Notes: a model not told the origin generated them from the sequence alone. A stretch of 64,000 nt of DNA from an uncultured Verrucomicrobia subdivision 3 bacterium (GCA_903865745.1 CAIPKV010000070.1:99898-163897), one strand, 5' to 3'; shown: positions 11,741 to 53,244, counted from the first letter of the stretch. Program-made: numbers and translations.

Positions 11741-12070
11741 AAATTATTATGTTTCATTGGTGGTCATTCCTAGTTTGTTCCAATCGCAATTTATTTTGTA
11801 GTATCCGCATGGTATTTGTTCTCGGCACTCTTCACGGCGGGCAGCTTCATCACGTTGCCGGCGAACCTGCAGGACTAACACCGCAAGCGTCACGGCAGCA
11901 ATGGGGGCAATATTTGTTTTCATATCGGACTTACCGTTTCTTCCATGGTGTGGCTTCGATCATAAGCGCTGTGTGCGGCACCAGTGCGGGCACGCGGTTT
12001 GCGCCTTCATGAACGCCAAGGAATTCACCGGTCCAATAGTTATTTAGGCTCACTTAGTGCGGGGGGTTGC

Positions 12071-20904: not shown

Positions 20905-23900
20905 TCAGGGGCTTACCATCCGATAGAACTGTTGCATGGCATTGGTCGGAACCGGACTGGTATAATTAAATTGCCCATTCCCAGGGAAGGTGTTCGAAGT
21001 TTCCATCGTCCATTGTGCCCACGACAATGCCAGGTTCGTCGTAGTGAACAGCCGCCAGGGCTGTCCGGCCTGGCCCGTGCCGCCAAGCTGCAAACCGCCG
21101 CCGCCGTTCAGCCAGAGCACGTTTGTGAAAACGATCGGGGCCGGGGGGGTGATCGTGAAGGCGAAACTGGTGTTAGTGCCCAGATAATTGGCATCCGCGG
21201 CGACTAAGTTTGTGACATAATAGCTGCCAATGTTTGTCGGCGCGTTCGCACTTAAGTAGGTCGTTCCGGTAGTGCCAACATAGTTTGTGGTTCTCGTGCC
21301 ACTGGAACCGCTGATCACGATGTCGGGACCTTGACCCATGCCATTATAAATAAAGTTTGTTCCACTATAATTCACCGTGGTATTGGTCGGGTTGACCACC
21401 TGTGTCACCGCGTTCGTGCTGGGCAGGTAATAGCTGTCGCCTGAATAGATGGCTTGGATGGGGTAAGTGCCCGCGTTGAGCGCGTTGTTGGTGCAAAGGG
21501 CGGTTCCATTCGCAATGACGTTGGTGGCAACCGCGGTTCCGCCCACCGAAAACACCACGTTGCCTGTTGCCGCCGCCGCCGTGGTGCCGTTGGTTTGCAC
21601 CGTCGCGGTGAAAACAACTGCCTGGCCATAGACCGACGGGCTAGCGGGCGAGGCATTTAAGCCCAGCGTCGTGGCCCGAGGCACGACGGAGTTTGGATTG
21701 CGAAACCGGAAAGTGCGGGTTATTGCGTTTGTCTGGAGCGCGGCAATATCCTGATAATTGGTGCTGCCCAATTTTAGATTATAGGTGATATCCCACTTTA
21801 GATTCGCGCCATTGTAATCCGCCTGCCAGAAATCATTGCCGTTTACCGTCTGGTTGACAGCTGACCAGTTGGTTCCCACCAGTTCCTCCACGAGGGGATT
21901 CTGATAAGTGGATGCCCCGGTGAAGGTCACCGGCACATAGTTGAGGCCGCCCGTCACGGAAAATTGCGCAAAGTCATTTGTCACCCCAATGGCAATGCTG
22001 GGATAGGTTTGCACCAGCATCCCCGCCGAGATATTCAGCAAAAGGCTGTTGCCGATGGCCTCGCGTAATACCATTTTATAAGTGTTAGCGTAATTCGTGG
22101 CAGCCGTGGCCATATTGATGTCAGGACCGTAATATTCACCCGGCACAGAGGGCAGATAAATACGCTCAATGACTGCCTGCACATAATCCCCCGCCTGGAG
22201 CGTGGTCACGCCCGGAGGCGGCACGATGTCAATGGAGGATCCTGTGTAACCCGGGGCCAGACTATGTTCGATCAGATAAGGCGGCACATTATCCACCCCA
22301 TTGATCCGCGCCTTCCATGAGCGGATAATATAACCTTTAACTCCCGGACTATAACTTGTATCGCCTCCACTATAAACAAGACTATGAATGGAGATCCATG
22401 GCTGATTGTTGGTCAGGGCAACCGCCAAGCCGATGTTTTTGTTTTGTCCCGAGGTTGCGGCGCTCCATTCCCTGACCGCATTGGTTTGGTTGCTGTATCC
22501 GTAAGCCAGATTCGTTCCGTTATTGTAGGCATAACTGTCCCCCGGCATCTGAAAAAAGACCAGTCGGTTGAAGGAGAGGTTGGAATTGACGTTGACCGTC
22601 AACTGATGCAGCCCCCGGGTGTAGTCATCAGACCGGCCGAGCGAGGCGCTGTAGCTCAAAGCCATCTTGCCATCGTCGGTCTGGCCGGCATACGTCGCTT
22701 GCGTGAGGTTGGGACAATAGCGGGCATACTGCGTGCGCATGCGCCGATGTTGATGCTGAGTGTTGCCACTGTCGTAATAGCGCAAGAATTCCGCACCGCC
22801 AAGATTGATGCCCCAACCACCGGTCTGGCCGTTGGTGTTGAGCAACAGGATCGGACGCGAATCGGCCCCGTCATTGTCGGTCAGGACGTGCTCCACATCA
22901 TAAGTCAGCGATTCACCGCAATTGCCCAGCGCTGACTCATCCCACTGCTGATTCTGGTTGCCGTTACCATATCCATATTCACATAACTGGGAATGCGTGG
23001 CCGCCGGCACCCCGCCCCAATTCTGACCGGCCATCGTGAGTTCCAAATTCAAATTGGTATTGGGTGGCACCGTCAGCAGGGTCAGCCCATGAAACCATTG
23101 ATTGGCAAACATCGGGTAACTGGAGGGCGTATCCCAATCCTTTGACAACTGCACCGGAAGCCCCACCGGGTTCAGACTGGCGTCTCGCAACACCGCCGTG
23201 ATGCCAGGTATGTAAAAGGGGACACCGTCAAAATTGATTCGCACCACGCGCGGGGTGGGACTGTTATTCGTTACTGTTACCTGTGCGCGAAGGATGCCAT
23301 CGTCACCAGCGGTGCCACTGGCGGGAAGACTCACGTCATACCATCCCCGGTCGGTATCGTAATTCACGGCCAGGCCGCCCCCTGCGGGCAGGACGGGCGT
23401 GACCGCCAGCGGCAGCGGCGCAGCCTCCGTGACCACTGCGTTGGTCAGGGACCAAGCCACATTGGTCGCGACAGGATAAATGACCAACCCCACGGATCCT
23501 TGCTGGCTGGTTTGCCAGTTGTTTATGGCCGTCGTCACCGTGACCGTGGCATTGGTGGGATTGAAACTGATGGCGGAGCTGCCGGCGCTGGGGAGAAAAA
23601 TGAAGCCGGTGCCGTTGCTTGCCTGCAAGGCCCCGCCCACGCCGTAAGTCAAGAGGGTATTGTAAAGGTTCGTCAGCGTCAGCTTCATTTGAAGGGTCGC
23701 ACTTGATATCGTGTTGGATGGCGCGAGCCTCAGGACAAAGCTCAGGCGATCCGGCCAGGAGGCCATCTCCAAACCACACTGGTTCGTATCGAGCGGCAGC
23801 CCGCCAGCTTTGACCTTTTGCCAGCGCCGCTGGAAATATTTACCGCACTCAATCAGCGCCGTATTGGCGGTCAGGGTTCCAACATTATTGGTGACGCTGT

Positions 23901-25953
23901 TGGTAACCACCTGGCACGACAGGCTAACCGGCGGCGAACTCGTTGGAAAACTGGCCGCCCAGCTTTCGGTAAGGACCGCGGATTCCGGGCTGGGAATAGC
24001 TAATGGGAACAGGGTTGTGAGGGTCAGGTTGGCCGAATTGAACGACATTCCGTAGCGACTGGTTTTAATGCCATATACAGAAGACGCCGGGCCGTTGGAC
24101 CAGAACATAAACCCGTAGTCCTGGACATTGGTAAAAACCAGAGGCGGCAGCGATGCTATGCCCGCAGGATTGTTTACCAGGGAATCAATCACCAGATAAA
24201 GTGTGTTCCCGGAAACCGTCAGGTGCGCGGCGACCCAAAGTCCGGCGACCGCCACGGCGACGTTGGTGGGAGCGTTGCCGGTCTGGCTTGTCCAGGTCAT
24301 GAGCGGATATTGCGCGCCAGGAGAAGCGCCCAAGTAACCCATCTCCACCGTGACCGCCGGTCTGGCAGTGAACGCGGCGGTTCCAGACACAATCAACGGC
24401 GACAACGAAGCGTTGGGAAGATTATATCCAAAATTAAAATCCAAAACATTCGTGCCGCCGTTATTGCCCACCGTCAAACCGGCGCAAGTCCAAGGCTGTG
24501 TCTGGCTCAGCACACTCACACCAAATACGGCTTGCGTGCCCGTCGTGGCGCCCAGCGTGATGACGCTGTTGGAGCAGGAACCGCCGCTGACGCCCACCAG
24601 CGCGCCCGCGCGAATGGTTGTGGCTCCATGATAGGTGTTGTCACCATAAAGCGTCAGGGTGTTGGCGTTGGTCTTCACCACCCCTGTCACAAAGGTTCCG
24701 GCCGTGTTGTCCTGAATCACCCCAGTTAGGGCCAGGTCACTCGTCCCGCCAAACACCAACTGCTGACCTGCCCCGGTCTGCGCCCCGCCGTATCGGAGGT
24801 TAAACGGCGACGCCGTGAAGGTCGCCAGCCCGCTGCCGTTGTTATTGACATTGATGATGGAGGCGTTGCCGGTAATGCTCCGGGTCGTGCTCGCCGCTGC
24901 CCCGCCGTAATTGATGGTGCAGGGACCGTTGGCGACGCCCTGCCCCGCCATCGCCAAATAGGGGTAGGAACCCAGCGTGGCAAAGTTAGTCGTGATGAGG
25001 GTGCCAGAATTAAAGATGATGGCGGTAAAATTGTTGGCCGCATTATTCAGCGTCAAGGCACCGCCGCCGGTTAAAAAAAGTCCGCCGGAGTTGTCCAAAG
25101 CCGTGACGACACTGTTGATGGTCAGCATCCCGCCGCTGCCGGCATTGGCCAGATTGAAATAGCTGGAATTAGCCAAATTGGTAATGTTAAGGCTTTCGTT
25201 GATCACGGCGCTGGCGTTAGCCGCCACGGTGAACGCCGTGTAAGCGCCGCTGACCCCAAACATAAAATTGGTGCCGGTCCCATTGAGATTGCCGCCATTG
25301 ACACCGAAGCTGATGCCGCTGTTGTTGCCGGTGAAGTTGGTCGCGTTTTGTGAACCCAGATCCAGCGTGCCGCCGTTGATGGTGATGGCGCTGTTGGTCG
25401 CCAGCGCCCCGCTGCCGGTGAGCGCCAGCGTGCCGCCGTTCACCGTCGTCGCCCCAGTGTAGGTGTTCGCGTTGTTGAGCGTCAGCGTGCCCGCGCCGGA
25501 TTTGGTCAGGCCCATCCCGGTTCCACTGATGATCCCCAAAACCGTCAAGGTCTTGGCCGCGTTCACATTCCAGATCTGGCTCGCCCCAAGGGCCAGATTG
25601 TTCGTGATGGCCAGATTGACTGTGGCCGCCGACATATCGATCCCACTCGCGCCATTGGTCAGGGTGCCCGCCCCGGTGATGGCGATGTCACCCAAGGCGC
25701 CCGCCACACTGATGCCGCCCCACGTCTTGGAAGTTCCGAGTGTCAATCCCGCACCCAGCGATGAGCTGTTCCAGAGAGCAATGTCGCCGGAACCAGGCGA
25801 GCCGTTGGCGCCCGAACCGCCGGACCAGACCCCGGCGGTGGCCCCGGTAAGGTCGGTTCCTGTCCCCGTCTTAGTGGCGTTCGCCGCACAGACCGGCCCC
25901 GCCGTGAGCATCAGCATAGCAAGGGTCGTGGTGAGGTAATTGATTCTGTGCAT
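20905..25953 (-). CDS. Giant surface protein P1: PATR beta-helix, an ~800-aa uncharacterised domain, Ig-like (Big_3-type) and MBG-like domains, and a conserved C-terminal tail
   Basis: Signal peptide MHRINYLTTTLAMLMLTAGPVCA at ATG 25953; the 5' region is homologous to that of P2. Many G.GTLTL.NANTY(T/S)GATTVNGGTL repeats. Nt ~21688-24135 (aa ~620-1435) are paralogous to ORF 6244-8742. The protein ends ...AMQQFYRMVSP. Confidence 0.9.
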   Translation of the reverse strand: MHRINYLTTTLAMLMLTAGPVCAANATKTGTGTDLTGATAGVWSGGSGANGSPGSGDIALWNSSSLGAGLTLGTSKTWGGISVAGALGDIAITGAGTLTNGASGIDMSAATVNLAITNNLALGASQIWNVNAAKTLTVLGIISGTGMGLTKSGAGTLTLNNANTYTGATTVNGGTLALTGSGALATNSAITINGGTLDLGSQNATNFTGNNSGISFGVNGGNLNGTGTNFMFGVSGAYTAFTVAANASAVINESLNITNLANSSYFNLANAGSGGMLTINSVVTALDNSGGLFLTGGGALTLNNAANNFTAIIFNSGTLITTNFATLGSYPYLAMAGQGVANGPCTINYGGAAASTTRSITGNASIINVNNNGSGLATFTASPFNLRYGGAQTGAGQQLVFGGTSDLALTGVIQDNTAGTFVTGVVKTNANTLTLYGDNTYHGATTIRAGALVGVSGGSCSNSVITLGATTGTQAVFGVSVLSQTQPWTCAGLTVGNNGGTNVLDFNFGYNLPNASLSPLIVSGTAAFTARPAVTVEMGYLGASPGAQYPLMTWTSQTGNAPTNVAVAVAGLWVAAHLTVSGNTLYLVIDSLVNNPAGIASLPPLVFTNVQDYGFMFWSNGPASSVYGIKTSRYGMSFNSANLTLTTLFPLAIPSPESAVLTESWAASFPTSSPPVSLSCQVVTNSVTNNVGTLTANTALIECGKYFQRRWQKVKAGGLPLDTNQCGLEMASWPDRLSFVLRLAPSNTISSATLQMKLTLTNLYNTLLTYGVGGALQASNGTGFIFLPSAGSSAISFNPTNATVTVTTAINNWQTSQQGSVGLVIYPVATNVAWSLTNAVVTEAAPLPLAVTPVLPAGGGLAVNYDTDRGWYDVSLPASGTAGDDGILRAQVTVTNNSPTPRVVRINFDGVPFYIPGITAVLRDASLNPVGLPVQLSKDWDTPSSYPMFANQWFHGLTLLTVPPNTNLNLELTMAGQNWGGVPAATHSQLCEYGYGNGNQNQQWDESALGNCGESLTYDVEHVLTDNDGADSRPILLLNTNGQTGGWGINLGGAEFLRYYDSGNTQHQHRRMRTQYARYCPNLTQATYAGQTDDGKMALSYSASLGRSDDYTRGLHQLTVNVNSNLSFNRLVFFQMPGDSYAYNNGTNLAYGYSNQTNAVREWSAATSGQNKNIGLAVALTNNQPWISIHSLVYSGGDTSYSPGVKGYIIRSWKARINGVDNVPPYLIEHSLAPGYTGSSIDIVPPPGVTTLQAGDYVQAVIERIYLPSVPGEYYGPDINMATAATNYANTYKMVLREAIGNSLLLNISAGMLVQTYPSIAIGVTNDFAQFSVTGGLNYVPVTFTGASTYQNPLVEELVGTNWSAVNQTVNGNDFWQADYNGANLKWDITYNLKLGSTNYQDIAALQTNAITRTFRFRNPNSVVPRATTLGLNASPASPSVYGQAVVFTATVQTNGTTAAAATGNVVFSVGGTAVATNVIANGTALCTNNALNAGTYPIQAIYSGDSYYLPSTNAVTQVVNPTNTTVNYSGTNFIYNGMGQGPDIVISGSSGTRTTNYVGTTGTTYLSANAPTNIGSYYVTNLVAADANYLGTNTSFAFTITPPAPIVFTNVLWLNGGGGLQLGGTGQAGQPWRLFTTTNLALSWAQWTMETSNTFPGNGQFNYTSPVPTNAMQQFYRMVSP

Positions 25954-26007
25954 CGCAGATTTCTTTAATTGGCATTTTATAAAGGTTGTCATTATTTGGA
26001 TACAGGA

Positions 26008-29000
26008 TCACGGCATCTCGACCCAACGATAAAATCGCTGGCTGTGTCCGCTGATTGAATCGGCAACGGTTTGCACCGCGCCCGTTCCGGTTTGTGGCAG
26101 CGCCAAAGGAGACCAAGCCGACCCGCCAAGAGCGTCATTGTATTCGACCCACCACGTCACATTGTTGGGGACGGCGCAAGCGGATTGCACGCTACCGGCA
26201 TTGATTTGAATACCGGAAACCGGGAGCGAATTGGTCCACACCGGAATGCGAAAGGGCGACGCCGGCAGGCCGGCGCGGTTGTAGAGGTTCGTTCCCATCG
26301 GCACTCCCTTCCAAGCATAACGAACGAAGACAGGATTGGGCACCGACGGCGAAGAGACCACCACCGTCCCATTGGGGTCAATTTGCGCCGTGGCGGACAC
26401 ATAGAGCTGGTTGGACTCCGCAATTTCAAACCACTGCGGCGATACTCCCGGCAGTTCTTGAACCGGGTCCAGATTGTTCTTTTGCCCGGTCATCAACCCG
26501 CCGGCCACAAAGTCGAACGCAATTCGAATCTGATTGGTTTCAATCGCATAACTCCGGAATAACGGACCGCTGGGCACCACATTGGTGAAACCATAGTCGT
26601 GGTTCAAAGACAGCATCGCGAGCCGCGTCCCGACATCCACTTTGTTGCCGGGATGAATGGCGTTGGGATCATCCACATCGAAAATGACGGCCATCCCGGT
26701 GTTGGTCGCCGTTCGCAGGGTGAGCGTTTGCGCCTCACGGGTGTATGGCCAAAGGTTGTCGGTGCCGACGAGGCTCGGCAACTGGACAAAGTAGAAAGGC
26801 AGATTCGGCTGCTGCCACCGGCTGCGCCAGTCCTGGATCATGGTGGGAAACAATACGCGATACATCATGGTTCCACTGCCGCCGAGCGACTCTCCCTGAT
26901 ACCAGATCACGCCGCGCAGGCCGAACGGAACCAGGGGCGAAATCATGGCGTTGAACATCGCGCCGGGAACAAAGGTGGGGCTGGTCTGGAGGCCTTGAAA
27001 ATAGTTGGCCAGGCTCTGAGTGGCGAAAGCTTGCAGTTCGGGGATGGCATTCATCGCAGCCACACTGCTCCAGGCCTCCATCGGGGTGCCGCCATAAGAC
27101 GACTCCAAAATCCCGATGGGAACCACCATGCCTTGAACGCTGTTGCTCTGGAACAAGGTGCGCGCAAAGAAATAGGCCGCCGCGCTCAAGTTGGACACGC
27201 TGGCCGGAGAGCAGGGTGTCCAGGACCAATCGAGGGTGGCGTCCCAGGCCGGGTTGAGTGAGCCGGTTTGCCGGACGCGCATGTGCCGGATCAATGGGTA
27301 GTTGGCCGCGGCAGTTTCTGCAGCCGCGTTGGATACTGACTGATTGGGGTTATTGCCATTGACCGGGAAATACATATTGGACTGGCCGGAAGCCAGCCAG
27401 ACATCCCCAACCACCACATTGGTGAAAGACAGATTGGTGACCCCGGCAATCGAGATGCTGAGTTGCTGCCCATTCGTGTTAACCGGCATAGAGTCCAAGT
27501 AGACCCCCCACGAGCGGTCCGGAGCGGCGGTGGCCAGCTTAGTCTGTCCGCCAAAAGTCACCGTAATAGTTTGCCCCGGCTCGGCGGTGCCCCAGACCGG
27601 AACGGCCATGTCCCGCTGCAAGACCATATGGTTGGCGAACACTCCCGGCACGGACCAGGGCGGAACGACGCGAATGGTGCCGTTGTTGGTTAGCTGGCCC
27701 AAATCCCACTTCACGCCATTGCTCAACGCGGGAAGGTTGCTGGAACTAAACGTGCCGGAATAAGCCGACGCTTGAAACAACTGGAAAACATCTCCGGCGG
27801 TCAATGAAATATTGTTTGGATTGGTGACCACCAACGTGCCTCCATAAGTGATCTGGTTTAGGACCGCTACGCGGTTGTTGTAATTGGTAAAGTTCCTGCC
27901 CAATTGAAAAGCCGACACGCTGCCGACGGCCAGGGTCAAGCTACTGTTGATCGCCAGCTGGCCGCTGCCGGAAATCCCCGGAGACAAGGCGCCGCCGGCC
28001 TGGACGGTCACCGGCCCGTTGATGGCGCCAGCGCCAGAGAGAACTCCACCGCTCGCCAGCAAGGCACTGGTGGCCAGCGCGCCATTCACCGTCAGACCGC
28101 CCTTAGCCACGGTCGTGGCGCCGCCCAGGACACTGGTGCCGGTGAGGGCTAGGTTGCCCGTGCCCTGTTTGACCAGGCTGCCGGGGCCGCTGAGACTGCC
28201 GTCGTAAGTGGCATTCAAGTTGTTGGTTCCAACGCTAAGAGTGACCGGAGAGCTGCCGTTGAAGGTTAGCGCCAGACCGCCGCTGCCCGCCAGGCCACCC
28301 AAGGTCGCGGCGTTGACTGAAAACTTCAGGCCACCATCGCTATTCACCGTCACCAAACTGGCTGCCAAAGCATTGCCATTCCCCAAAATCACGCTGCCGC
28401 CGTTGATGGTGGTGGCGCCGCTGAAACTATTGGCGAGATTGAGGGTCAGATTACCGGAACCATCCTTCTCGAGCCCGGTCGCTCCGGCGATGCCGCCGCC
28501 GCTGCTGTTGAAGATGTAGTTTCCGCCGCTATTGTTCACGGTCACCCACCCGGGGGAAACGAGCGTGGCCACGTTCACCGTGTATTGGCGGTTGTTAGCG
28601 TCATTAAAGAGCACTTGGTCGCCATCATCGTAGTGCGTCCGGTCTGCGACGCTCTGCGCGGTGAACCAGTTCGTGTCGGTCTGGAGGTTGTTCCAGCGCG
28701 TCGGATTGGCGGCATCCGCGCCCGTCCAGGTCAGATTCACGACCACAGAATTGCTTCCCACAGCCACGAACAGTTCGCCATTGGTCACTTGCAATAGCGC
28801 CGTGCTGCCGCCGACAATTCCACCGCCGGTCACAACCACACCTGGCACGGCCCCGCCGACCTGCCCGCCGGAAGCCTTGCTGATGATTTTGTAAGCCCCG
28901 TTGGTCAGCGCCGTCCCGGTGTTGTTGACGGTAATAGTCGTTGCGGCGGCAAGAGTGAGGGTGCCGTTGGTGACCAGAAATGCCGACTGGCCGGCAGAGT

Positions 29001-30753
29001 AACTGACCGAAACGGTGCCAGCGGCGGTATTGAGGTTGCCGCTCAGCGTGCCCGTCGAAGCCGCGCTGTTGAATAAGGTTTGGCCCGGCGCCAGGTTTAG
29101 GCCGGAGGCTAACCCGGAGGCATCCAAAATGGCGCCATTGGTCACGCTGAGCAAAGCCGAGTTGCTGATGGAACCGCTGCCACTCAGAGCCAGCGTGCCG
29201 GAATTAATGAAAGTCGGGCCGCTGTAGGTGTTGGCTCCGGTCAGGGTCAACGTCCCGGCAGCACGCTTGATAACCACGCCCGAGCCACTGACAGCGGCGC
29301 CAAAGGTTTGCGGGTTTGGGTTGTTGAAAACGAGCGTGGAGTAATTCGTGATATTGCCCGTCACGAGGCCGTTCTTGGTGGCGCCATCCCCGAGTTGCAG
29401 AGTGCCGGCCCAGACCGTCGTCGGCCCGCTGTTGGTGTTGTTGCCGTAAAGCGTTAGCGTGTTGTTATTGGTCTTCACCACCCCCGTCACATAGGTTCCG
29501 GACGTGTTGTCCTGAATCACCCCCGCGATGGCAATGTCGCTGGGCCCGCCAAACACCAACTGCTGACCGGACCCGGTCTGCGCCCCGCCGTATCGGAGGT
29601 TGAAAGGCGAACCCGTGAAGGTCAACAGCCCGGTGCCATTGTTGTAAATGTTGATGACGGCGGCATTGCCATCAAGTTGCTTTGCCGTGCTCACCGCCGG
29701 CCCCGCATAGTTGAAGGTGCAGGGACCGCTGCCGGTATTTTGTCCCATCACCCCAAAAAACGGATAAGATCCGAGGGTGCCAAAGTTGGTCGTCGTCACG
29801 GTGCCGGCATTCCAACCCAACGCGGAAATGATGTTGCCCGGATTGTTCGCCACCAAGGTGCCGCCACCGCTCAACCATAGCTCGCTACCAGAATTCAAGG
29901 CGATGATCTTGCCGTTGATGGTCAGCGTCCCGCCGCTGCCCACACTGGCGATCTGGTCATAGTTGACCCCTGCCACATTGGTGATGTTGACATTCTCGTT
30001 GACCACCGCCGCCGCATTGGCCGGCACGGTAAAAGCGGTATATCCCCCGGTAAGCCCGATCAGATTATTGGTGCCGGTGCCATTGAGATTACCGCCGTTA
30101 GCGCCGAACGTGATGCCAGTGTTGCTGCCAAGAAAATTAGTGGCGTTTTGTGACCCCATATCCAGCGTGCCGCCGTTGATGGTGATGGCGCTGTTGGTCG
30201 CCAGCGCCCCGCTGCCCGATAGGACCAACGTGCCGCCGTTGACCGTCGTCGCCCCGCTATAAGTATTCGCGTTATTGAGCGTCAGCGTGCCCGCGCCGGA
30301 TTTGGTCAGGCCCATACCGGTTCCACTGATAATCCCCAAAGCCGTCAAGGTCTTGGCCGAATTCACATTCCAAGTCTGACTGGCTCCAAGGGTCAGGTTG
30401 TTCGTGATGGCCATATTCACCGTGGATGCCGACATATCGATCCCACTCGCGCCATTGGTCAGTGTGCCCGCGCCGGTGATGGCGATGTCACTCAAGGCTC
30501 CCGAGACGCTGATGCCACCCCACGACTTGGAAGTTCCGAGTGTCAATCCCGCACCCAGCGAGGCGCTGTTCCACAGGGCAATATCGCCGGAACCGGGCGA
30601 GCCGTTGGCTCCCGAACCGCCGGACCAGACCCCGGCGGTGGCTCCGGTAAGATCGGTTCCCGCCCCCGTCTTGGTGGCGTTTGCCGCGCAAACCGATCCC
30701 ATCGTGAGCAGCAACAAAACAAAGGTCGTGGTGAGCAAGCTTATTTTATGCAC
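26008..30753 (-). CDS. Giant surface protein P2: PATR beta-helix fused to a C-terminal SASA-type O-acetylesterase domain plus the conserved tail
   Basis: The first ~450 aa are colinear with P1. Start proposed at GTG 30753 (VHKISLLTTT...) by homology with the P1 start context (aaagaaatctgcgATG versus gaaggaatctgctGTG); the listed ORF extends to 30783. Nt ~26239-27663 encode NHMVLQR...VWGTAEPG...DVWLASGQSNM...GVIWYQGES, the SASA esterase blocks. The protein ends ...SQRFYRWVEMP. Confidence 0.9.
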   Translation of the reverse strand: MHKISLLTTTFVLLLLTMGSVCAANATKTGAGTDLTGATAGVWSGGSGANGSPGSGDIALWNSASLGAGLTLGTSKSWGGISVSGALSDIAITGAGTLTNGASGIDMSASTVNMAITNNLTLGASQTWNVNSAKTLTALGIISGTGMGLTKSGAGTLTLNNANTYSGATTVNGGTLVLSGSGALATNSAITINGGTLDMGSQNATNFLGSNTGITFGANGGNLNGTGTNNLIGLTGGYTAFTVPANAAAVVNENVNITNVAGVNYDQIASVGSGGTLTINGKIIALNSGSELWLSGGGTLVANNPGNIISALGWNAGTVTTTNFGTLGSYPFFGVMGQNTGSGPCTFNYAGPAVSTAKQLDGNAAVINIYNNGTGLLTFTGSPFNLRYGGAQTGSGQQLVFGGPSDIAIAGVIQDNTSGTYVTGVVKTNNNTLTLYGNNTNSGPTTVWAGTLQLGDGATKNGLVTGNITNYSTLVFNNPNPQTFGAAVSGSGVVIKRAAGTLTLTGANTYSGPTFINSGTLALSGSGSISNSALLSVTNGAILDASGLASGLNLAPGQTLFNSAASTGTLSGNLNTAAGTVSVSYSAGQSAFLVTNGTLTLAAATTITVNNTGTALTNGAYKIISKASGGQVGGAVPGVVVTGGGIVGGSTALLQVTNGELFVAVGSNSVVVNLTWTGADAANPTRWNNLQTDTNWFTAQSVADRTHYDDGDQVLFNDANNRQYTVNVATLVSPGWVTVNNSGGNYIFNSSGGGIAGATGLEKDGSGNLTLNLANSFSGATTINGGSVILGNGNALAASLVTVNSDGGLKFSVNAATLGGLAGSGGLALTFNGSSPVTLSVGTNNLNATYDGSLSGPGSLVKQGTGNLALTGTSVLGGATTVAKGGLTVNGALATSALLASGGVLSGAGAINGPVTVQAGGALSPGISGSGQLAINSSLTLAVGSVSAFQLGRNFTNYNNRVAVLNQITYGGTLVVTNPNNISLTAGDVFQLFQASAYSGTFSSSNLPALSNGVKWDLGQLTNNGTIRVVPPWSVPGVFANHMVLQRDMAVPVWGTAEPGQTITVTFGGQTKLATAAPDRSWGVYLDSMPVNTNGQQLSISIAGVTNLSFTNVVVGDVWLASGQSNMYFPVNGNNPNQSVSNAAAETAAANYPLIRHMRVRQTGSLNPAWDATLDWSWTPCSPASVSNLSAAAYFFARTLFQSNSVQGMVVPIGILESSYGGTPMEAWSSVAAMNAIPELQAFATQSLANYFQGLQTSPTFVPGAMFNAMISPLVPFGLRGVIWYQGESLGGSGTMMYRVLFPTMIQDWRSRWQQPNLPFYFVQLPSLVGTDNLWPYTREAQTLTLRTATNTGMAVIFDVDDPNAIHPGNKVDVGTRLAMLSLNHDYGFTNVVPSGPLFRSYAIETNQIRIAFDFVAGGLMTGQKNNLDPVQELPGVSPQWFEIAESNQLYVSATAQIDPNGTVVVSSPSVPNPVFVRYAWKGVPMGTNLYNRAGLPASPFRIPVWTNSLPVSGIQINAGSVQSACAVPNNVTWWVEYNDALGGSAWSPLALPQTGTGAVQTVADSISGHSQRFYRWVEMP

Positions 30754-30825
30754 AGCAGATTCCTTCGTTTGGGATGGTCGCAAGTTGTATTCAAATTAAA
30801 CTTTTTATTTTGTTTCTTTTTATTC

Positions 30826-31632: not shown

Positions 31633-34600
31633 TTAGGGTTGCGACAGCCGATAGTATTGCTGGTCGTTGGTGGCGTTCGGATCGGTGAACAGCAAGAGGC
31701 CGTTGGTGCCGAATGTGTTGGTGGTGAGCGGCCACCACGGGAATGACAGATTGGTCGTCGTCTGCACAACGGCCTGATAATTCGGGATGCCATAGAAGGT
31801 GATGTTCACCAGGCCATTGGTTGGCTGGCCCATCTGGGCGGGGCCGGCGGCGCTGTAAACATCCACCAGAACATTTGCCGTGGCGGTGCCGCCAAAGCCG
31901 TCGCTCACGGTGTAGGTGAAACTGTCATTGGCATTGCTGTTGGCACCGGTGCTCGGAACATAGAAAATGTTGGCACTGTTGGTCATGATGGTCGCGCCCG
32001 TGCTGCTGGTTCCCAGGCTTTCCAATGTGTTGGTATCGCCGTCCACCCCATCCGTAACATTGGTGAGCAGGTCGGCAATGATGATCTTGAGCGTTGTGCC
32101 CTTGGCCCGGTAGTAAGTTGCGTCCACAGCCACCGGCGGATGGTTGGTGACGATCTGTTCCAGCGTGTTCGTGCTGCCGACATAATTGCCATCACCCAGA
32201 TAGGCCACGGTTAAGACGTTCGTCCCACGCGGCAGATTGGTGATGGAGAGGCTCGTGGCTGAGCCACTACTCACGCTGTTCGTGCTAATCGGCCCATTGG
32301 TGGTGGAGAATACCACGTCGCCCGTGGCAAGCGCCGGCAGCGTCGCGGTGAAGGCAACGGCATCCCTGTAGCCGGAGGGATTGTTGGTGGAGGCCGCTCC
32401 AACCGAAGTGCTGGCCGGACTGATGGTCAACGTGCCGTTGGTGTAGCTGATGGTGTAGTTGGCGGATGTCTGGCCGAGGGGAGTGATGGGGTAACTTCCG
32501 GCATTGGTCGCGCCTTGCGACGAACCATCATAACTCAAACTGCCGCCCAACACCGCCGGGGTTTCGCTGTTCACAAAACCGGAGTAGGTCACGCCGTTGC
32601 CGCCAGCAAACGGCACTCCGCCGTAGGTTATGTTGGTGTTGTTCGCCGTAATGCCGAGCGGAGCCTGGTTCACGGTTTGGGTCAGGCTGTTGGTGCTGGG
32701 CAGATAATTAGCATCGCCAACATAGATGGCACTAATCGTGTGCGACGGCACGGTGAGCAAGCTAGTGACATAGGTGGCCTGACCGCTCGAAAGACTGTTG
32801 GTGGTAACCGGCGTTCCATCCACGCTGAACACCACATTGCTGGTGGCATTCCCGGCCGTCACGCTGTTGGTTTGAATCGCCGCCGTGAACGTCACGGTCT
32901 GGCCATAGGTTGAGGCATTCAACGACGAATCCAAGGCGAGCGTGGTGGGCTGGGTGTTCAAGACTACATGCAGTTTGACGAGACCGCCGCCGGCGATAAT
33001 CGTGCCAGTGGTGTTTGCCGCCAGTCCCGCGCCGCTGATGACGGGCGTGGAGTTGAACGAGCCGCTGCTGCCGGTGGGGTTGTAAGTGATCAAGGTATAA
33101 TCCCCCGCGCCGAGGGCGGAAGGCGTGGCCACTTTCAGCGTATTGTTGTTCAGCGTCAGTGAACCGGTAATCGTGAGCGGCGAACCCTGATTGTTGGTCG
33201 CCAAAGATCCTGAGCCAAAGATGACATTGCCGCCGATCGTGCCGCTGCCGCCCAAGACGCTGCCACTGTTGACCACCGTAACCGAGTTGGTGCCAATCGA
33301 ACCGTTGACCAGCAGTGTCCCGCCGCTCACCGTGGTGACACCGGAGTAGGTGTTGTTTCCCGAGAGTGTCAGGGTGTTAACGTTGGTCTTCACCAGCGCG
33401 GTCAGGAAAGTGTTTGCCGTCGCATCTTGAATCACACCCGTGATGGTGATGTCGCCCGAACCGCCCAAGGTCAAAGTCTGCGGTGTGGCGCTGGACTGCG
33501 ATCCGTAGGGTGAATAAAAAGTGGAACGATTAAAGGTCACCGCCCCGCTGCCGTTGTTCAGAATGGTCGGAGTAAGATCTCCAGAATTGAACAGGATGGC
33601 ATTGGTGGTGGCCGGGCCGGCATAAATAAAAGTGGCCGGCCCGTTGCCGACGACTTGCCCGAGAGTCACAAACCCACCAGTTCCCAAGGTGGCGAAGTTG
33701 GTGCTGATAATGGTGCCACCGGTGTTCCAAACATTGATGGCATAATAGCTGGGGTTGGTATTGTTCAGGGTCAAGCTCCCGCCGCCTTGCAGCCAGAGCG
33801 TCCAGTTTTGCGGGCCTTTGACACTCCCGTTTACGGTTAAGCTGGCACCACTGACGACACTGGCCAGGGCTTCATACCCGCTGTTGGCCAAGTTGGTCAC
33901 CGCAATGTTTTCATTGACCACGGCGTTGCCGTTGGCCGCCACCTGCAGGGCAATCGCGGCACCGCTGGTGCCGACGATGGTGTTGGTGCCGGTGCCGTTG
34001 AGATAACCGCCATTGACGCCGAAACTGATGCCGTTGTTGTTGCCCTGATTATTGGTCGCGTTCTGTGATCCCATGTCGAGCGTTCCGCCGTTGATGGTGA
34101 TAGCGGCGGCGGTTGAGAGCGTGCCGTTATTGGTGAGAGCGAGTGTGCCGCCATTGACGGTGGTCGTGCCAGTGAATGAATTTGTCGTAGTGATTGTCAG
34201 CGTGCCCGCGCCGGACTTCGTTAATGCCGTGCTGCCCGCAATTCCACCGCTGCCGCTGATGGTGTAATTCGCCGTCGGATTGGTGACCGTGACGCTCGCC
34301 GGGCTGATGCTGGAGTTCAACGTGACCGTGCCGCCCGAACCCACTGTGTTGTTAAACACCACGGAGTCGCCATCCACGTAATACGTGCTGGCACTGGCGT
34401 TGTCTTTCCAGATGGTGTTGTTGGCGATGTTGTTGACATCCCAGGTGCCGTTGCCGCCCGTCCAACTCAAGGGTTCGGTGCTGCCGCTGCTTTGCAGATA
34501 CAGCGTGTTGCCCACGATGGCCAGAGTGCCGCCCGCACGGAAGGGTAGCGAGAGCGTCATGCCGTTGGTGGTGGCCGGGCCGCCCGAACCCCACGTCATC

Positions 34601-37470
34601 AAGGGATAGCCGTTGCCCGTGCTGGCGGGCAGGCTGCTGCCGGTGATGATAATTGCGGGTGTGGTGGTGAAGGTGAGCGCTCCCGTCACGTTCAGCGCGG
34701 CGGCCGTCGTGCCCGGCGTGAGGGCACCAAAATTGAATTGCAGGCTGGAACTCACACCGCCGTTATTGACGGTCAGGCTCGAAATGGTCCATTGCTTGGT
34801 GGTATTGGTCACCGTGACGCCAAGGATGGCGGAACTGCCGGTAATGGCTGCCAGCGTCACCGCGCTGTTGGAGCAGGAACCCGCCGTGACGCCAATCAGC
34901 GAGCCGCCTTTGATAGTGGTCGCGCCGCTGTAGGTGCTGTTGCCGTAAAGCGTCAGCGTGTTGGCGTTGGTTTTCACCACGGCCGTCGAATAGGTTCCCG
35001 GCGTGTTGTCCTGCATCACCCCCGCGATCGCCATGTCACTCGTCCCGCCAAACACCAATTGCTGACCTGCCCCGGTCTGCGCCCCGCCATATCGGAGGTT
35101 AAACGGCGACGCCGTGAAGGACACCAGCCCGCCGCCGTTGTTATTGATATTGATGATGGAGGCGTTGCCAATAACGCTCCGGGTCGTGCTCGCCGCCGGC
35201 CCGCCATAATTGAAGGTGCAAGGACCGTTGGCGACGCCTTGTCCCATCTGCGCCAAATAGGGGTAGGAACCCAGCGTGGCGAAGTTGGTCGTGATGAGGG
35301 TGCCGGAATTATAGATGATGGTGTTAAAATTGTTGGCCGCATTATTCAGCGTCAAGGCGCCGCCGCCGGCTAAAAAAAGTCCGCTGGGGTTGTTCAAGGC
35401 CGTGAGAACGCCGTTGATGGTCAGCATTCCGCCGCTGCCGGCATTGACCAGATTGAAATAGCCGGAATTCGCCGTATTGGTGATATTGAGGTTTTCGTTG
35501 ATCACGGCACTGGCGTTGGCCGGCACCGTGAACGCCGTGTAACTGCCGGCGTTTCCCAACATATAATTGGTGCCAGTCCCGTTGAGATTACCGCCGTTGG
35601 CGCCAAAGGTTATGCCGGTGGTGTTGCCCAGATTGTTCGTAGCGTTCTGCGAACCCAGGTCCAGCGTGCCGCCGTTGATGGTAATGGCGGTGTTGGTCGC
35701 CAAGGCACCGCTGCCGGAGAGCGCCAGGGTGCCGCCGTTGACGGTGGTGGCCCCGGTGTAGCTGTTAGCCGCAGTCAAGCTCAGCGTGCCGGCGCCCGAT
35801 TTGCTAAGTCCCCCGGTATTCGTGATGGCTCCGCTCAAAGTCAGGGTCTGAGATGTGGCGACGCCGACGGTGGAGTTGGCGCTCAAATTGACGGGAATGG
35901 AGAATGTGCCGCCCACGTTGTTGGACAGCGTCCCACCACCCAACGTGAGCAAGCCGGAACCCAACGCAGAATTATTGTCGGCCTCCAAAATACCTGCACT
36001 GATCGTGGTGCCACCGGCGTAGGTGTTTGCACCGGAGAAAATCAGCGTGCCGGTTCCGGAATCGGTGAATGAACCGGCACCGGCAATGACGCCACTCAAG
36101 GTCTGCGCGGCGCTGCTGTTGTAAATGAATGAACCTCCATTGGTGATGTTACCCGCGTAAGCGCCGCTACCCAATTGGCCGGCACCGCTGATCATCACCG
36201 TGCCAATATTGGTAATAATCGGACCGGTAAAGGTGTTCGTAGCCGTGAGCACGTTCGTGCCCGCCCCACTGATTGCCGCATTGAAGATGATGGAGTTGGC
36301 TGAACCATTGACAATGGGACCGTTGAGGGTCAGCGTCGAAGTGGATTGCGGGGCAAAGATGCCGGTGGCATTGAGGGTAATTCCGCCAGATACGACCGCA
36401 TTACCATTGGCGCCGGTGTTGTCCGTCCCCAGCACGCCTCCGACCATCACGATCGGTTTAAGCAGTTTCATATTGCTGGCGGATTGTCCGTAAAGTCCCA
36501 GTCGCAGCGTCCCGCCCGAATTGATGTAAATTGAACCCGGCGTGTTGTTGTCCAGCGTGAAGCTTTGAATCATCGCAATGTAACTGCTGTTGATATTGAT
36601 GTTCTGGATGTTCGTCAGCACACTGCCGGTGCCTTGAACATAAAAAGCTGCGGAACCAGCCGCCGTCAAATTATAGCCGCCGCCCGTTAGTGTCGCATTG
36701 CCTGCCGACTCGCCAGAAAGACCCCAGGCTCCGCTGCCGCCGAAGGTGGTGTCTCCAGTGAGGGTGATGTTTCTCAAGGCGTGCGTCTGCGTGCCCCCGC
36801 TGTTGTAGATGGCACCTTTGCCCCCAACTCCCGTGCCCGCAACCGACACGACATAGTTGCTGGTGCCATTATATCCGTTCAAAGAAATGGCATTCACATC
36901 CAGTGTCGCACCGGAAGCAATGGTGATAGCGCTGTTGTTCGGCCCGAAACAATTTGTGGTGCCCGCCTTGAGCGTTCCTCCCGAAACGGTCGTGCCGCCG
37001 CTGTAGGTGTTCGTGGCGGAGAGCGTCAGGATGCCCGCGCCAGCCTTGGTCAAACCTGCCGTGCCAGCCAGAAGATTACTAATGGTTGCAACCTTGCTGC
37101 CGCCCAACGTATTGACCGTGACGGTTGGTGACGCGCCACTCAGAGTCAATGTGGAGGTGGCCGGGGCACCAGGACTCAAAATCCAGCCAGCGGCGCTGCT
37201 GGTGGTGGTGTCGCCAAAGATGAGGGCATTGATACTTTGATTTCCATCCAGCGTGACCGTGGAGTCCGCCGTGATGTCCAGCGTGCTGAAATCAGCGGTG
37301 TCCGTGGCTCCCGGCAGCGCGCCGGTGCTCCAGGGCGGGGTGACGGCGGTGTTCCAACTGCCGGAGGCATCACCTCCGGAAAGCTGGTTCCAAGTGTCGG
37401 TGCCTGCCTGGGATTTTGCCGTGAGCAGCAGGGCGGTGACGGTCAGGGTGGCGGCAATGATTCTTTTCAT
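31633..37470 (-). CDS. Giant surface protein P3: PATR beta-helix with Big_3-like Ig, MBG (YG-type) and cadherin-like/Big_9-like domains and the conserved tail
   Basis: Signal peptide MKRIIAATLTVTALLLTAKSQA at ATG 37470. Dozens of PATR repeats. The C-terminal third has ...YGQTVTFTAAIQT... (Ig-like), ...NTNITYGGVPF...YSGFVNSETPAVLGG...AGSYPI...NYTISYTNGTLTI (MBG-like) and NHPPVAVDATYY...DSFTYTVSDGFGGTATANVLVDV (cadherin-like). The protein ends ...NDQQYYRLSQP. Confidence 0.9.
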   Translation of the reverse strand: MKRIIAATLTVTALLLTAKSQAGTDTWNQLSGGDASGSWNTAVTPPWSTGALPGATDTADFSTLDITADSTVTLDGNQSINALIFGDTTTSSAAGWILSPGAPATSTLTLSGASPTVTVNTLGGSKVATISNLLAGTAGLTKAGAGILTLSATNTYSGGTTVSGGTLKAGTTNCFGPNNSAITIASGATLDVNAISLNGYNGTSNYVVSVAGTGVGGKGAIYNSGGTQTHALRNITLTGDTTFGGSGAWGLSGESAGNATLTGGGYNLTAAGSAAFYVQGTGSVLTNIQNININSSYIAMIQSFTLDNNTPGSIYINSGGTLRLGLYGQSASNMKLLKPIVMVGGVLGTDNTGANGNAVVSGGITLNATGIFAPQSTSTLTLNGPIVNGSANSIIFNAAISGAGTNVLTATNTFTGPIITNIGTVMISGAGQLGSGAYAGNITNGGSFIYNSSAAQTLSGVIAGAGSFTDSGTGTLIFSGANTYAGGTTISAGILEADNNSALGSGLLTLGGGTLSNNVGGTFSIPVNLSANSTVGVATSQTLTLSGAITNTGGLSKSGAGTLSLTAANSYTGATTVNGGTLALSGSGALATNTAITINGGTLDLGSQNATNNLGNTTGITFGANGGNLNGTGTNYMLGNAGSYTAFTVPANASAVINENLNITNTANSGYFNLVNAGSGGMLTINGVLTALNNPSGLFLAGGGALTLNNAANNFNTIIYNSGTLITTNFATLGSYPYLAQMGQGVANGPCTFNYGGPAASTTRSVIGNASIININNNGGGLVSFTASPFNLRYGGAQTGAGQQLVFGGTSDMAIAGVMQDNTPGTYSTAVVKTNANTLTLYGNSTYSGATTIKGGSLIGVTAGSCSNSAVTLAAITGSSAILGVTVTNTTKQWTISSLTVNNGGVSSSLQFNFGALTPGTTAAALNVTGALTFTTTPAIIITGSSLPASTGNGYPLMTWGSGGPATTNGMTLSLPFRAGGTLAIVGNTLYLQSSGSTEPLSWTGGNGTWDVNNIANNTIWKDNASASTYYVDGDSVVFNNTVGSGGTVTLNSSISPASVTVTNPTANYTISGSGGIAGSTALTKSGAGTLTITTTNSFTGTTTVNGGTLALTNNGTLSTAAAITINGGTLDMGSQNATNNQGNNNGISFGVNGGYLNGTGTNTIVGTSGAAIALQVAANGNAVVNENIAVTNLANSGYEALASVVSGASLTVNGSVKGPQNWTLWLQGGGSLTLNNTNPSYYAINVWNTGGTIISTNFATLGTGGFVTLGQVVGNGPATFIYAGPATTNAILFNSGDLTPTILNNGSGAVTFNRSTFYSPYGSQSSATPQTLTLGGSGDITITGVIQDATANTFLTALVKTNVNTLTLSGNNTYSGVTTVSGGTLLVNGSIGTNSVTVVNSGSVLGGSGTIGGNVIFGSGSLATNNQGSPLTITGSLTLNNNTLKVATPSALGAGDYTLITYNPTGSSGSFNSTPVISGAGLAANTTGTIIAGGGLVKLHVVLNTQPTTLALDSSLNASTYGQTVTFTAAIQTNSVTAGNATSNVVFSVDGTPVTTNSLSSGQATYVTSLLTVPSHTISAIYVGDANYLPSTNSLTQTVNQAPLGITANNTNITYGGVPFAGGNGVTYSGFVNSETPAVLGGSLSYDGSSQGATNAGSYPITPLGQTSANYTISYTNGTLTISPASTSVGAASTNNPSGYRDAVAFTATLPALATGDVVFSTTNGPISTNSVSSGSATSLSITNLPRGTNVLTVAYLGDGNYVGSTNTLEQIVTNHPPVAVDATYYRAKGTTLKIIIADLLTNVTDGVDGDTNTLESLGTSSTGATIMTNSANIFYVPSTGANSNANDSFTYTVSDGFGGTATANVLVDVYSAAGPAQMGQPTNGLVNITFYGIPNYQAVVQTTTNLSFPWWPLTTNTFGTNGLLLFTDPNATNDQQYYRLSQP

Positions 37471-37689: not shown

Positions 37690-40600
37690 TTACGGCGCGG
37701 TGAACAGATAAAACCGTTGTTGATTGGTGGCCGCGCCCGGGTCGGTAATGGTGAACGGGCTTACCGTGACCGTGCCATTGGTCAGCAACGTCCAGGTGTT
37801 GGTGACCGGCGTCAGTGCCAGGTTGGTGGTGGCCCAGAGCTTGAACGTGCCGCCAATCGCGCCGGTGGCCGTGAGCGACATGGTGCCGTTGGCGTAGCTG
37901 AAACCGCCGGCCTGGAAGTTCGGCGCGCTGGTGACGGTGCCGACCGTGACCTGCAAGTAAAGCGTGCTGCCGACGACGGCGAGGTTGCCAACGATGCCGG
38001 CAGGCAGCGAGAGCGTCATGCCATTAGTGTTGGCAGGTCCGCCCGAACCCCAGTTCATAAGCGGATAACCGTTGCCGCTGCTGACCGGCAGGCTGCTGCC
38101 CGTGATTGTGATTCCGGGTGTGGTGGTGAAGGTGGCCGCGCCGGTGACATTCAAGGGCGCAACCGTTGCGCCGGGACTACCCGAGCCAAAGTTGAATTCC
38201 AGGCCGGAGCTGACGCCGCCGTTGTTCACCGTCAGGCTGGGAATCGTCCATTGCTTCGTGTTATTCGTCACCGCGACACCGAGGGCGGACGTATTTCCAG
38301 TCGTTGCCGCCAGCGTAAAGGCGCTGTTCGAGCACGAACCGCCAGTGACACCCAACAATTTTCCAGCGGGAATGGTGGTGGTTCCATGATACGGATTGTT
38401 GCCGCCAAGCGTGAGAATATTGCTGTTGGTTTTGACCAGCTTGGTGTTGAAATGCACACCGTCGGGATTGGCGTCTTGAATAATGCCAGAGATGGTCATG
38501 TCCGCCGTTCCACCCAGGGTCAAGGTCTGGCCGGTGGCGTTGGTCTGGGTGCCATATTTGGGATTGAAGGTTGCATTGTTAAAAACGACCGCGCCGCCGC
38601 CATTGTTAAGAACCGTCTGCGCCAAATCTCCAGATGAAAGTTGTATTCCCGTAGTTGCGCCTGAACCCGCGTAAATCAAAGCCGCCGGTCCGTTGCCGGT
38701 GCTTTGCCCCATGGTCATGTAGCCACCGCTGCCCAACGCGCCAAAGTTGGTGATGATGACCGTGCCGCCGGTGTTCCAGATGCCCAGCGTGGTAAAGACG
38801 TTGCTGGCATTGTTCAGCACCAGCGTGCCGCCGCCTTGCAGCCATGGATTGGATCCGGACTTGGTGTTGATCAGCCGGCCGTTGATGGTTAAGGTGGCGC
38901 CGGCGCCAACACTTCCGAGCGATTGATATACTTGGACCAGATTCGTGAACACAATGTTTTCATTGATCACCGCCGCCGCCCCCGCCGCCACATTGAAGGT
39001 CACGGCATTGCCGTCGGCACCGATGATGATATTGGTGCCGGTGCCGTTGAGCGTGCCACCGTTGCTGCCAAAAATAATGCCAGTGTCATTACCCTGATTG
39101 TTGACGGCCATCTGCGATCCCATGTCCAGCGTGCCGCCATTGATGGTGATGGCGGCGGCGGTTGAGAGCGTGCCGTTGTTGGTGAGAGCGAGTATGCCGC
39201 CGTTGACGGTGACGGCCGCGCTGGCCAGATAGCCGTTGGTGGCCAGCAGCAAGGTGCCGCCATTGACCGTGGTGGCCCCGGTGAATAAGTTTGCTGTGGT
39301 GAGCGTCAATTTTCCCGCACCGGATTTGGTCAGCCCAGTGCTGCCCGCAATCCCACCGCTGCCGCTGAAGGTGTAGTCGGCGGTAGGATTCGTAACTGTG
39401 ACGCTCGCCGGGCTGACGGTGGTGTTGTTGGTAATCACGCCCCCGGAGCCGACGGTGTTGTTGAAGACCACCGTATCACTGCTGCCGGCGGTTTCCTGAT
39501 AATAAGTGCTGGCTGAGGTGTTGTCCTTCCAAATCAAGTTGCCGCTGTTATTGATGTCCCAGGTGCCATTGCCGCCCGCCCAGGCCAGTGGCGCGGTGGT
39601 GCCGGTGACTTTCAAATACAGCGTGCTGCCCACGATGGCCAGGCTGCCAGAGACGCGCAACGGCAGGGTCAAGGCGATGCCGTTGGTGCTGGCAAGGCCG
39701 CCCGAACCCCACGTCATCAGCGGATAACCATTGCCGCTGCTGGTCGGCAGGCTGCTGCCGGTGATGGTGATATTGGTCGGCGTGGTGGTGAACGTGGCGG
39801 CACCGATGACATTCAGCGGGGCCAGAGTCGTGCCCGGGGTCAGCGTGCCGAAATTGAACTTCAGATCGGAACGAATTCCGCCGTTATTAACGGTCAGACT
39901 GGGAATGGTCCATTGTTTGGTGATATTCGTTACCGTGACGCCGAGCACGGCCGCATTGCCGGTGGTGGCGGCCAGCGTAATCGCACTGTTGGAACAACTG
40001 CCGCCCGTTACCCCCAACAGCGTGCCCGCGTAGATCGTGGTCGGCCCGCTGTTCGTGTTGTTGCCATAAAGCGTCAGGGTGTTGCTGTTGGTCTTCACCA
40101 CGGCCGTCAAATAGGTTCCCGGCGTGTTGTCCTGAATTACTCCCGCGATCGCCATGTCACTCGTCCCGCCAAACACCAACTGCTGAGCGGACCCGGTCTG
40201 CGCCCCGCCGTATCGGAGGTTAAACGGCGACGCCGTGAAGGTCACCAGCCCGCCCCCGTTGTTATTGACATTGATGATGGCGGCGTTGCCGATAACGCTC
40301 CGGGTCGTGCTCGCCGCCGGCCCGCCATAATTGAAGGCGCAGGGACCGTTGGCAACACCTTGTCCCATCTGCGCCAAATAGGGGTAGGAACCCAGCGCGG
40401 CGAAGTTGGTCGTGATGAGGGTGCCGGAATTATAGATGATGGTGTTAAAATTGTTGGCCGCATTATTCAGCGTCAAGGCGCCGCCGCCGGTTATAAACAG
40501 TCCGCTGGAGTTGTTCAAGGCCGTGAGGCCGCCGTTGATGGTCAGCATCCCGCCGCTGCCCGCATTGACCAGATTAAAATAGCCGGAATTCGCCAAATTG

Positions 40601-49711: not shown

Positions 49712-49721
49712 CCGTTTCTCC

Positions 49722-53242: not shown

Positions 53243-53244
53243 AG

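Follow-up and report, generated by a model that had tools for sequence, protein, structure and literature searches.

Why do four giant proteins that are encoded side by side and carry different upstream domains all end in the same short tail, and what might such a tail do for them? The question is raised by a 64,000-nucleotide stretch of DNA (hereafter the window) from an uncultured Verrucomicrobia subdivision 3 bacterium (GCA_903865745.1 CAIPKV010000070.1:99898-163897), in which four giant open reading frames (ORFs), here called P1 to P4, follow one another on the minus strand between positions 20905 and 42933. We found that the tail is one instance of a large domain family of Verrucomicrobiota that is real, absent from the catalogues and subject to an unusual rule of position. 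In function, it would appear to be a C-terminal domain for surface sorting or anchoring that belongs to no described group, and we tentatively read it as a module for retention or docking at the cell surface.

A homologous module closes four giant ORFs

All four giant ORFs (1591–1985 aa) close with a homologous module of 64–69 aa, as measured by the envelope of a hidden Markov model (HMM), with the motif ...G..G..Y...(S/T)TNL...W...D...RFY(R/L)xxxP-stop. Translation confirmed the four proteins and their last residues (...QQFYRMVSP in P1, ...QRFYRWVEMP in P2, ...QQYYRLSQP in P3 and ...QRFYLFTAP in P4, each followed by the stop), and a six-frame motif scan of the entire window found this ending on long ORFs at these sites only:

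20908..21108, minus strand: P1 tail, 67 aa; stop codon at 20905-20907, HMM envelope ending 1 residue before the stop
26011..26205, minus strand: P2 tail, 65 aa, divergent member; 2 residues from the stop
31636..31827, minus strand: P3 tail, 64 aa; identified by translation and both HMMs
37693..37899, minus strand: P4 tail, 69 aa; identified by translation, both HMMs and an AlphaFold model

The tails can be aligned across ~65–70 residues, with pairwise identities of 15–43%. A family HMM matched each giant ORF once, 1–2 residues short of the stop, with 62.1, 33.2, 54.1 and 88.0 bits for P1 to P4, respectively. Because the training set of this model partly included relatives of the window tails, which introduces circularity, we built an array-only HMM on 71 repeat units taken from proteins that have at least three tandem copies; these units give no significant BLASTP alignment to the window tails beyond ~20 residues. 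This model scored P1 to P4 at 50.7, 22.9, 59.5 and 57.2 bits, against at most 11.6 bits for 1000 shuffled tails; the homology is therefore real and far beyond chance. The claim of a preliminary description of this DNA, that the four giants share a C-terminal tail of ~70 aa, was thus borne out by translation, two HMMs and the shuffles.

P4 carries a tail of the most populous subfamily. The P2 tail is a divergent member: it reads YNDALGGSAW where the others have TTNL..W, is 15–23% identical to the other three, and is detectable as a homolog at the profile level only. Two close relatives of P2 (P0125 and P0147) bear the same tail. P1 and P2 are 71% identical across their N-terminal 484 aa and yet BLASTP leaves their tails unaligned, so that the shared tail is not a by-product of recent whole-gene duplication.

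The module is a predicted FN3-like β-sandwich outside catalogued families

The consensus of 219 domain instances, ..lp.G.vsLTaTGa.G.tY.LwASTNLaL...tWTlLtsgTit.sPFtftDp.ATNypqRFYRfs.P, is built around two glycines (88% each), a third glycine (78%), a tyrosine (75%), a tryptophan (97%), an aspartate (94%) and the arginine, phenylalanine and tyrosine of the closing RFY (86%, 90% and 97%, respectively). Searches with P1 to P4 at full length, with their tails and with 35 diverse members returned no model for the tail from Pfam-A (2025) or NCBIfam (June 2026) at E-values up to 1–10, and the view that it corresponds to no known sorting-signal model held in these scans. A profile search of the PDB by sequence gave no significant match either, the best being a pullulanase segment with an E-value of 0.027. 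Neither these three resources nor the literature that could be searched gave a description of the domain.

An AlphaFold2 model of the P4 tail, calculated from a 93-sequence alignment, reached a predicted local distance difference test score (pLDDT) of 88 and a predicted template modeling score (pTM) of 0.74, and agrees with an earlier AlphaFold model based on 7 sequences. It shows a six-stranded FN3-like β-sandwich with the TNL...W segment on a long conserved loop, and the tail is thus predicted to be an independently folding domain. The nearest structures that Foldseek retrieved from the PDB were the FN3 domain of the pectate lyases Pel3/PelI and FN3 domains of cytokine receptors, with a TM-score of ~0.6 over ~70 residues and non-significant E-values of 0.03–0.3. 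No solved type IX secretion system (T9SS) C-terminal domain appeared among the top 50 matches.

The domain sits at the C-terminus, alone or in tandem

To establish where the domain lies in other proteins, we analyzed two differently collected samples, comprising 154 and 116 proteins from the best-scoring 150 and 120 hits, respectively, among thousands. In the first, the domain ended at most 5 residues from the C-terminus in all 118 single-copy proteins. The remaining 36 of the 154 carry 2–5 tandem copies, and the array abuts the C-terminus in 34 of these 36, the exceptions being P0019, whose end is formed by an extra, degenerate copy, and P0067, with eight additional residues. The second sample gave the same picture: the domain stood at the end in 115 of 116 proteins, and 23 of the 116 have more than one copy. 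Scanning the window and 12 genomic loci in all six frames added 22 matches, every one of them 1–3 codons before a stop, on stop-to-stop ORFs of 161–2138 codons, some of which are cut at contig ends. The 12 loci were collected with a narrow P4-like alignment and are therefore biased toward the P4 subfamily. Tail genes are clustered in these regions, with 2–4 per locus within 15–64 kb.

The distance to the chain end is nearly fixed. In 204 of 266 proteins (77%) the chain ends exactly five residues past the FY, in 262 of 266 it ends 4–7 residues past it, and the last residue is proline in 216 of 266 (81%). In none of ~270 proteins is the last copy followed by another domain. The preliminary description had held that a motif found internally, as an ordinary repeat, would speak against a sorting function. 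Internal copies do exist: they make up ~30% of the instances (67/219), both samples contain tandem arrays, and in one protein (P0102) copies are interspersed with another domain; the internal copies have their conserved motifs (G, G, Y, W, D, RFY) in common with the terminal ones. The objection stands to that extent, and yet the last copy is terminal almost without exception.

The family is widespread in Verrucomicrobiota

When 1.84 billion cluster representatives were searched exhaustively with HMMER, 5748 protein clusters were identified at E ≤ 1e-3 and 350 at E ≤ 1e-10; word-indexed searches yielded mostly short fragments. The closest genomic relatives of the P4 tail come from metagenome-assembled genomes (MAGs) labeled Verrucomicrobia subdivision 3 or Verrucomicrobiota. 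Similar endings had been described as common in giant proteins of the Planctomycetes–Verrucomicrobia–Chlamydiae (PVC) group. They are indeed widespread, but the named source organisms are nearly all Verrucomicrobiota and no evidence was seen for other PVC phyla. Counts of tail proteins based on the HMM are underestimates, since two further ORFs at locus L009, one at 10255-12495 (plus strand) and one of 551 codons on the minus strand, end in ...QRFYRVVIP and ...RRFYRLLAQ and fell below the threshold.

Two of the collected loci carry other organism labels, Candidatus Sulfotelmatobacter (Acidobacteriota) for L009 and Akkermansia muciniphila for L004, both doubtful given the content of these MAG contigs. 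Stand-alone ORFs consisting of the tail only (P0202 and P0185, on the long metagenome contigs L015 and L016) are most likely assembly artefacts, because both contigs hold many split genes, such as an alanyl-tRNA synthetase in pieces.

Carriers are Sec-exported and lack other envelope anchors

The four giant genes of the window are organized as follows:

ORF 20905-25992, gene 20905..25953, minus strand: P1, 1682 aa from MHRINY...; signal peptide, PATR β-helix, ~820-aa enzyme-like region, Big_3_5, tail
ORF 26008-30783, gene 26008..30753, minus strand: P2, ~1581 aa; signal peptide, PATR repeats, SASA carbohydrate esterase domain, tail
ORF 31633-37590, gene 31633..37470, minus strand: P3, ~1945 aa from MKRIIAATL...; signal peptide, PATR repeats, two Big_3_5, cadherin-like/Big_9, tail
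ORF 37690-42933, gene 37690..42807, minus strand: P4, ~1705 aa from MKKIIVSIL...; signal peptide, PATR repeats only, tail

All four begin with type-I signal peptides (e.g., ...GPVCA/ANAT and ...KSQA/GTDT) and contain 2–6 PATR (autotransporter-associated β-strand) repeats (PF12951, TIGR02601; E-values of 1e-14 to 1e-39), with no autotransporter barrel (PF03797) in a Pfam scan of the full proteins. The same architecture recurs in the family. PATR repeats are present in 30 of 47 full-length carriers, and the remainder contain DUF11, PA14, heparinase II/III, TPS, invasin D3, Ig, fn3, CHB_HEX_C_1/Fn3_assoc or Golvesin_C, all of them extracellular-type modules. That the tail is kept at the extreme C-terminus while the upstream domains differ, as proposed for the window, therefore extends to PATR β-helices, the SASA esterase, Ig/cadherin-like, DUF11, PA14, heparinase and TPS modules. 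Carrier N-termini are classical Sec signal peptides, and lipoboxes are essentially absent.

No PEP-CTERM pattern occurs in 270 tail proteins, and none of the 47 carriers scanned contains the autotransporter barrel PF03797. Conversely, among 120 PATR homologs of other lineages, collected with the N-terminal region of P3, 31 have PEP-CTERM-like ends, 3 have autotransporter barrels and none has this tail. In the PATR protein superfamily, the tail thus takes the position usually held by an envelope anchor, to the exclusion of other anchors. Both kinds of ending coexist in the window, where two small minus-strand proteins (30950-31594 and 63164-63889) have PEP-CTERM-like ends composed of VPEP/APEP, a hydrophobic helix and a basic cluster. 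As the preliminary description had noted, these ends are distinct from the tail. The protein at 30950-31594 also contains a proprotein-convertase P-domain, and its gene sits between P3 and P2.

No secretion or attachment machinery was identified, and no candidate for it lies in the 64-kb window. A gene with a prepilin-type N-terminal methylation motif (PF07963; 42930-43877, minus strand) lies immediately upstream of P4, and similar genes lie within 10 kb of tail genes on L002 (10300-11145), L008 (~4584-4883) and L010 (~10210-12148), that is, in 4 of 13 regions (the window and the 12 loci), a frequency for which enrichment could not be shown. The prepilin-type N-methyl family (H-X9-DG-like) is highly multicopy in these genomes, and the proximity may reflect either a functional link, such as pseudopilin-dependent export, or mere high copy number.

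The tail resembles known C-terminal domains in behavior

A parallel in behavior is provided by the C-terminal sorting domains of T9SS (type A/type B, Bacteroidota). These measure ~70–100 aa and lie at the extreme C-terminus of proteins that are exported by Sec, often very large, and secreted or located at the surface; their passengers are diverse, and each genome has many carriers. The tail likewise occupies the extreme C-terminus of proteins with Sec signal peptides. It differs in that none of the full P1 to P4 proteins, their tails or the 35 diverse tails matches the NCBIfam/Pfam models of these domains, in that it forms tandem arrays (36/154 and 23/116) rather than occurring once per cargo, and in that its hosts are Verrucomicrobiota, where T9SS is not described; the window contains no genes for the T9SS core machinery or for its sortase-like peptidase. 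The tail therefore lies outside the T9SS C-terminal domain families, and the resemblance is one of behavior, that of a folded C-terminal sandwich on Sec-exported giant cargo.

PEP-CTERM signals of the exosortase system occupy the same C-terminal slot on PATR-repeat proteins and exclude the tail, but they are built from a short motif, after which come a transmembrane helix and a basic cluster (PMC1569441). The tail, on the other hand, is predicted to be a soluble β-sandwich of 65–70 aa that ends in ...RFYxxxxP with neither hydrophobic helix nor basic cluster, which rules out a sortase- or exosortase-type signal. The proposal of a sorting-type signal is supported by the extreme C-terminal position on diverse cargo and limited by the predicted folded FN3-like sandwich, which is unlike the short tripartite LPXTG and PEP-CTERM signals. 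Nor does the tail fit a C-terminal signal of the type I secretion system, as the carriers have Sec signal peptides, or the β-signal of outer-membrane proteins, as the terminal residue is proline and not an aromatic one. The 12-stranded barrel of autotransporters (type Va secretion; PF03797) also lies C-terminal to PATR passenger repeats and retains the passenger at the outer membrane, but a tail of ~70 aa with a predicted six-stranded sandwich is far too short to form one.

Small modules such as PPC (PF04151), SLH, GW and choline-binding modules abut the C-terminus of secreted proteins in one to several copies and mediate binding or retention, with avidity from tandem copies. The tail shares this arrangement of one to several C-terminal copies. 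No sequence relationship to these modules was detected, including to PF04151 at E-values up to 1–10, and they belong to other phyla and envelope types and have known ligands. FN3-like domains, for example the N-terminal FN3 of Pel3/PelI, are the best structural neighbors (TM-score ~0.6, E ≥ 0.03), but the tail does not match the Pfam fn3 or Big models, and FN3 domains are not restricted in position.

A possible role in surface retention or docking

Four explanations were weighed. That the similarity reflects chance, low-complexity T/N/S-rich sequence or the trivial paralogy of four recent duplicates is exceedingly improbable: the tails are rich in these residues and the four genes have large N-terminal modules in common, but thousands of homologs in other organisms, a confident model fold (pLDDT 88) and array-only HMM scores of 23–60 bits against at most 11.6 in 1000 shuffles refute it, and identities of 15–43% between tails compare with 71% for the common N-terminal modules. 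An ordinary FN3-like structural or ligand-binding (e.g., glycan-binding) repeat with no localization role, its terminal position reflecting 3'-end domain addition in the lineage, would account for the fold, for nearest (non-significant) neighbors among the FN3 domains of pectate lyases and cytokine receptors, for the tandem arrays and the interspersed copies in P0102, and for the setting in a carbohydrate-degradation locus. We nevertheless consider it doubtful. Spacer modules and those of the carbohydrate-binding module (CBM) type are normally found at varied positions, whereas here no domain follows the last copy in ~270 proteins and the chain ends 4–7 residues past the FY in 262 of 266; moreover, the tail is also carried by adhesin-like PATR proteins that have no enzyme module, such as P4, and is never paired with PEP-CTERM, even though this anchor type is common among PATR proteins and occurs in the window.

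Exclusivity to the extreme C-terminus, a fixed distance to the chain end and the terminal proline would suit an export or sorting signal like the T9SS C-terminal domain, in which an undescribed outer-membrane translocon or attachment enzyme of Verrucomicrobiota would recognize the folded tail and its free ...RFYxxxxP-COOH end and possibly cleave it. The Sec signal peptide combined with a C-terminal β-sandwich corresponds to the layout of T9SS cargo as given in PMC12618676, and many carriers per locus (2–4 in 15–64 kb), diverse passengers and mutual exclusivity with PEP-CTERM agree with it as well. This explanation is unlikely in view of the 20–23% of proteins with 2–5 equally conserved copies, which a signal would not need, of conserved motifs that are alike in internal and terminal copies, of the unmatched NCBIfam/Pfam sorting-domain models and of the absence of candidate machinery within the 64-kb window; T9SS is, in addition, described as restricted to Bacteroidetes in 10.1101/483123. 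We likewise give little credence to a wider idea, in which the tail would mark cargo for an outer-membrane route of secretion or attachment that is specific to Verrucomicrobiota and so far undescribed; it would be the PVC group's counterpart of the T9SS C-terminal domain and would serve giant adhesins and surface enzymes by the dozen in each genome. Tandem arrays whose internal copies are just as well conserved favor a binding module with avidity over a pure export tag, while near-absolute terminal placement, the fixed ...xxxxP-COOH end, heterogeneous passengers and PEP-CTERM exclusivity disfavor an ordinary spacer or CBM. Both sets of arguments lead us to favor, still tentatively, a non-covalent surface-retention or docking module.

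Under this retention model, the giant proteins would be exported by Sec through their type-I signal peptides, with no lipid anchor, and at the cell surface the tail would bind an envelope component or an outer-membrane partner protein non-covalently, thereby retaining them. It would fill the slot of the PEP-CTERM anchor or the autotransporter barrel in homologous PATR proteins of other lineages. Additional tandem copies, which typically add avidity in non-covalent anchors, could provide avidity or length here. Together with the PATR β-helix, the tail would display carbohydrate-active modules (the SASA esterase of P2 and the enzyme-like module of P1) and adhesin-like modules of a pectin/fucose-type locus.

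Several points weigh against retention or docking. Surface location, ligand and partner are properties that we infer from sequence for every family member, and the best Foldseek E-values of 0.03–0.08 indicate no significant solved neighbor, so that the structure offers no functional lead. SLH-like non-covalent anchors sit at either end of a protein, and neither the near-absolute terminal position nor the fixed ...xxxxP-COOH end is obviously required for pure binding. Three alternations of the domain with an unrelated one of ~150 aa occur in P0102, as would suit an ordinary repeat. Finally, lower-scoring members, outside the best-scoring 150 and 120 hits, could behave differently.

The tail bears on how Verrucomicrobiota move their very numerous barrel-less, "autotransporter-like" giant proteins, including surface-displayed carbohydrate-active enzymes, across or onto the outer membrane, and it may offer a testable entry point to their display. 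Because it marks at least 5748 clusters, has no entry in Pfam or NCBIfam and is C-terminal almost without fail, it provides a concrete handle for defining the surface proteome of environmentally abundant polysaccharide degraders and for finding a partner or machinery via phylogenetic profiling. It might also serve as a surface-display tag for Verrucomicrobiota. Should it be a mere binding repeat, it would still be a new domain family worth curating.

A surrounding locus with possible free and displayed forms of its activities

P1 is identical to a database protein (P0038, called at 1682 aa) that is found on 14 ENA/NCBI metagenome contigs, the longest of 285,766 bp; its neighbor gene is called at 1581 aa with PATR and SASA domains, matching P2. 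The giant genes at 20905-42933 are mosaics: besides the N-terminal module common to P1 and P2, one or two copies of a related module (...GTLDLGSQNATN...GGNLNGTGTN...) can be made out by eye within P3 and P4. Their structure suggests frequent recombination or duplication among the giant genes while the tails stay diverged.

The surroundings are those of a pectin/fucose-type degradation locus, with two GH29 fucosidases, two GH28 enzymes, a SASA esterase, a further esterase, RhaT and an AraC-type regulator. Residues ~590–1408 of P1 (window ~21770-24220), a region of ~820 aa, are 34% identical (E-value of 2e-87) to a stand-alone secreted ORF at 6244-8742 (minus strand), and neither matches a Pfam family. 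Given their position amid GH28, GH29 and esterase genes, the two may represent an uncatalogued carbohydrate-active enzyme (CAZyme) family with a free form and a form fused to PATR repeats and the tail. Tail-less stand-alone catalytic modules, namely the SASA domain at 16115-16954 and the P1-like module at 6244-8742, coexist in this locus with PATR-plus-tail versions, which suggests that the same activities may be present in free and cell-displayed forms. Within the CAZyme cluster, three further sizeable minus-strand ORFs (8739-10112, 12071-14092 and 18527-20890) have no Pfam match, and the N-terminus of the one at 12071-14092 resembles a twin-arginine signal (SRRVFIAKSAAAAAGLAA).

Beyond the giant genes, a defence-type cluster occupies 48051-52997 (minus strand) and comprises a DUF3037 protein (48051-48899), a HipA-like kinase (48896-49747) and an MmeI-like type IIL restriction-modification enzyme (49722-52997). 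It is followed on the plus strand by a prophage-like block (~53200-63140) with a PolB-type exonuclease (53249-53947), an ERF recombinase (54019-54651), a DUF6551 protein, an SNF2/ResIII helicase (57453-59132) and, at 61385-63139, the large subunit of a terminase. The GC content of the block is close to that of the remainder of the window.

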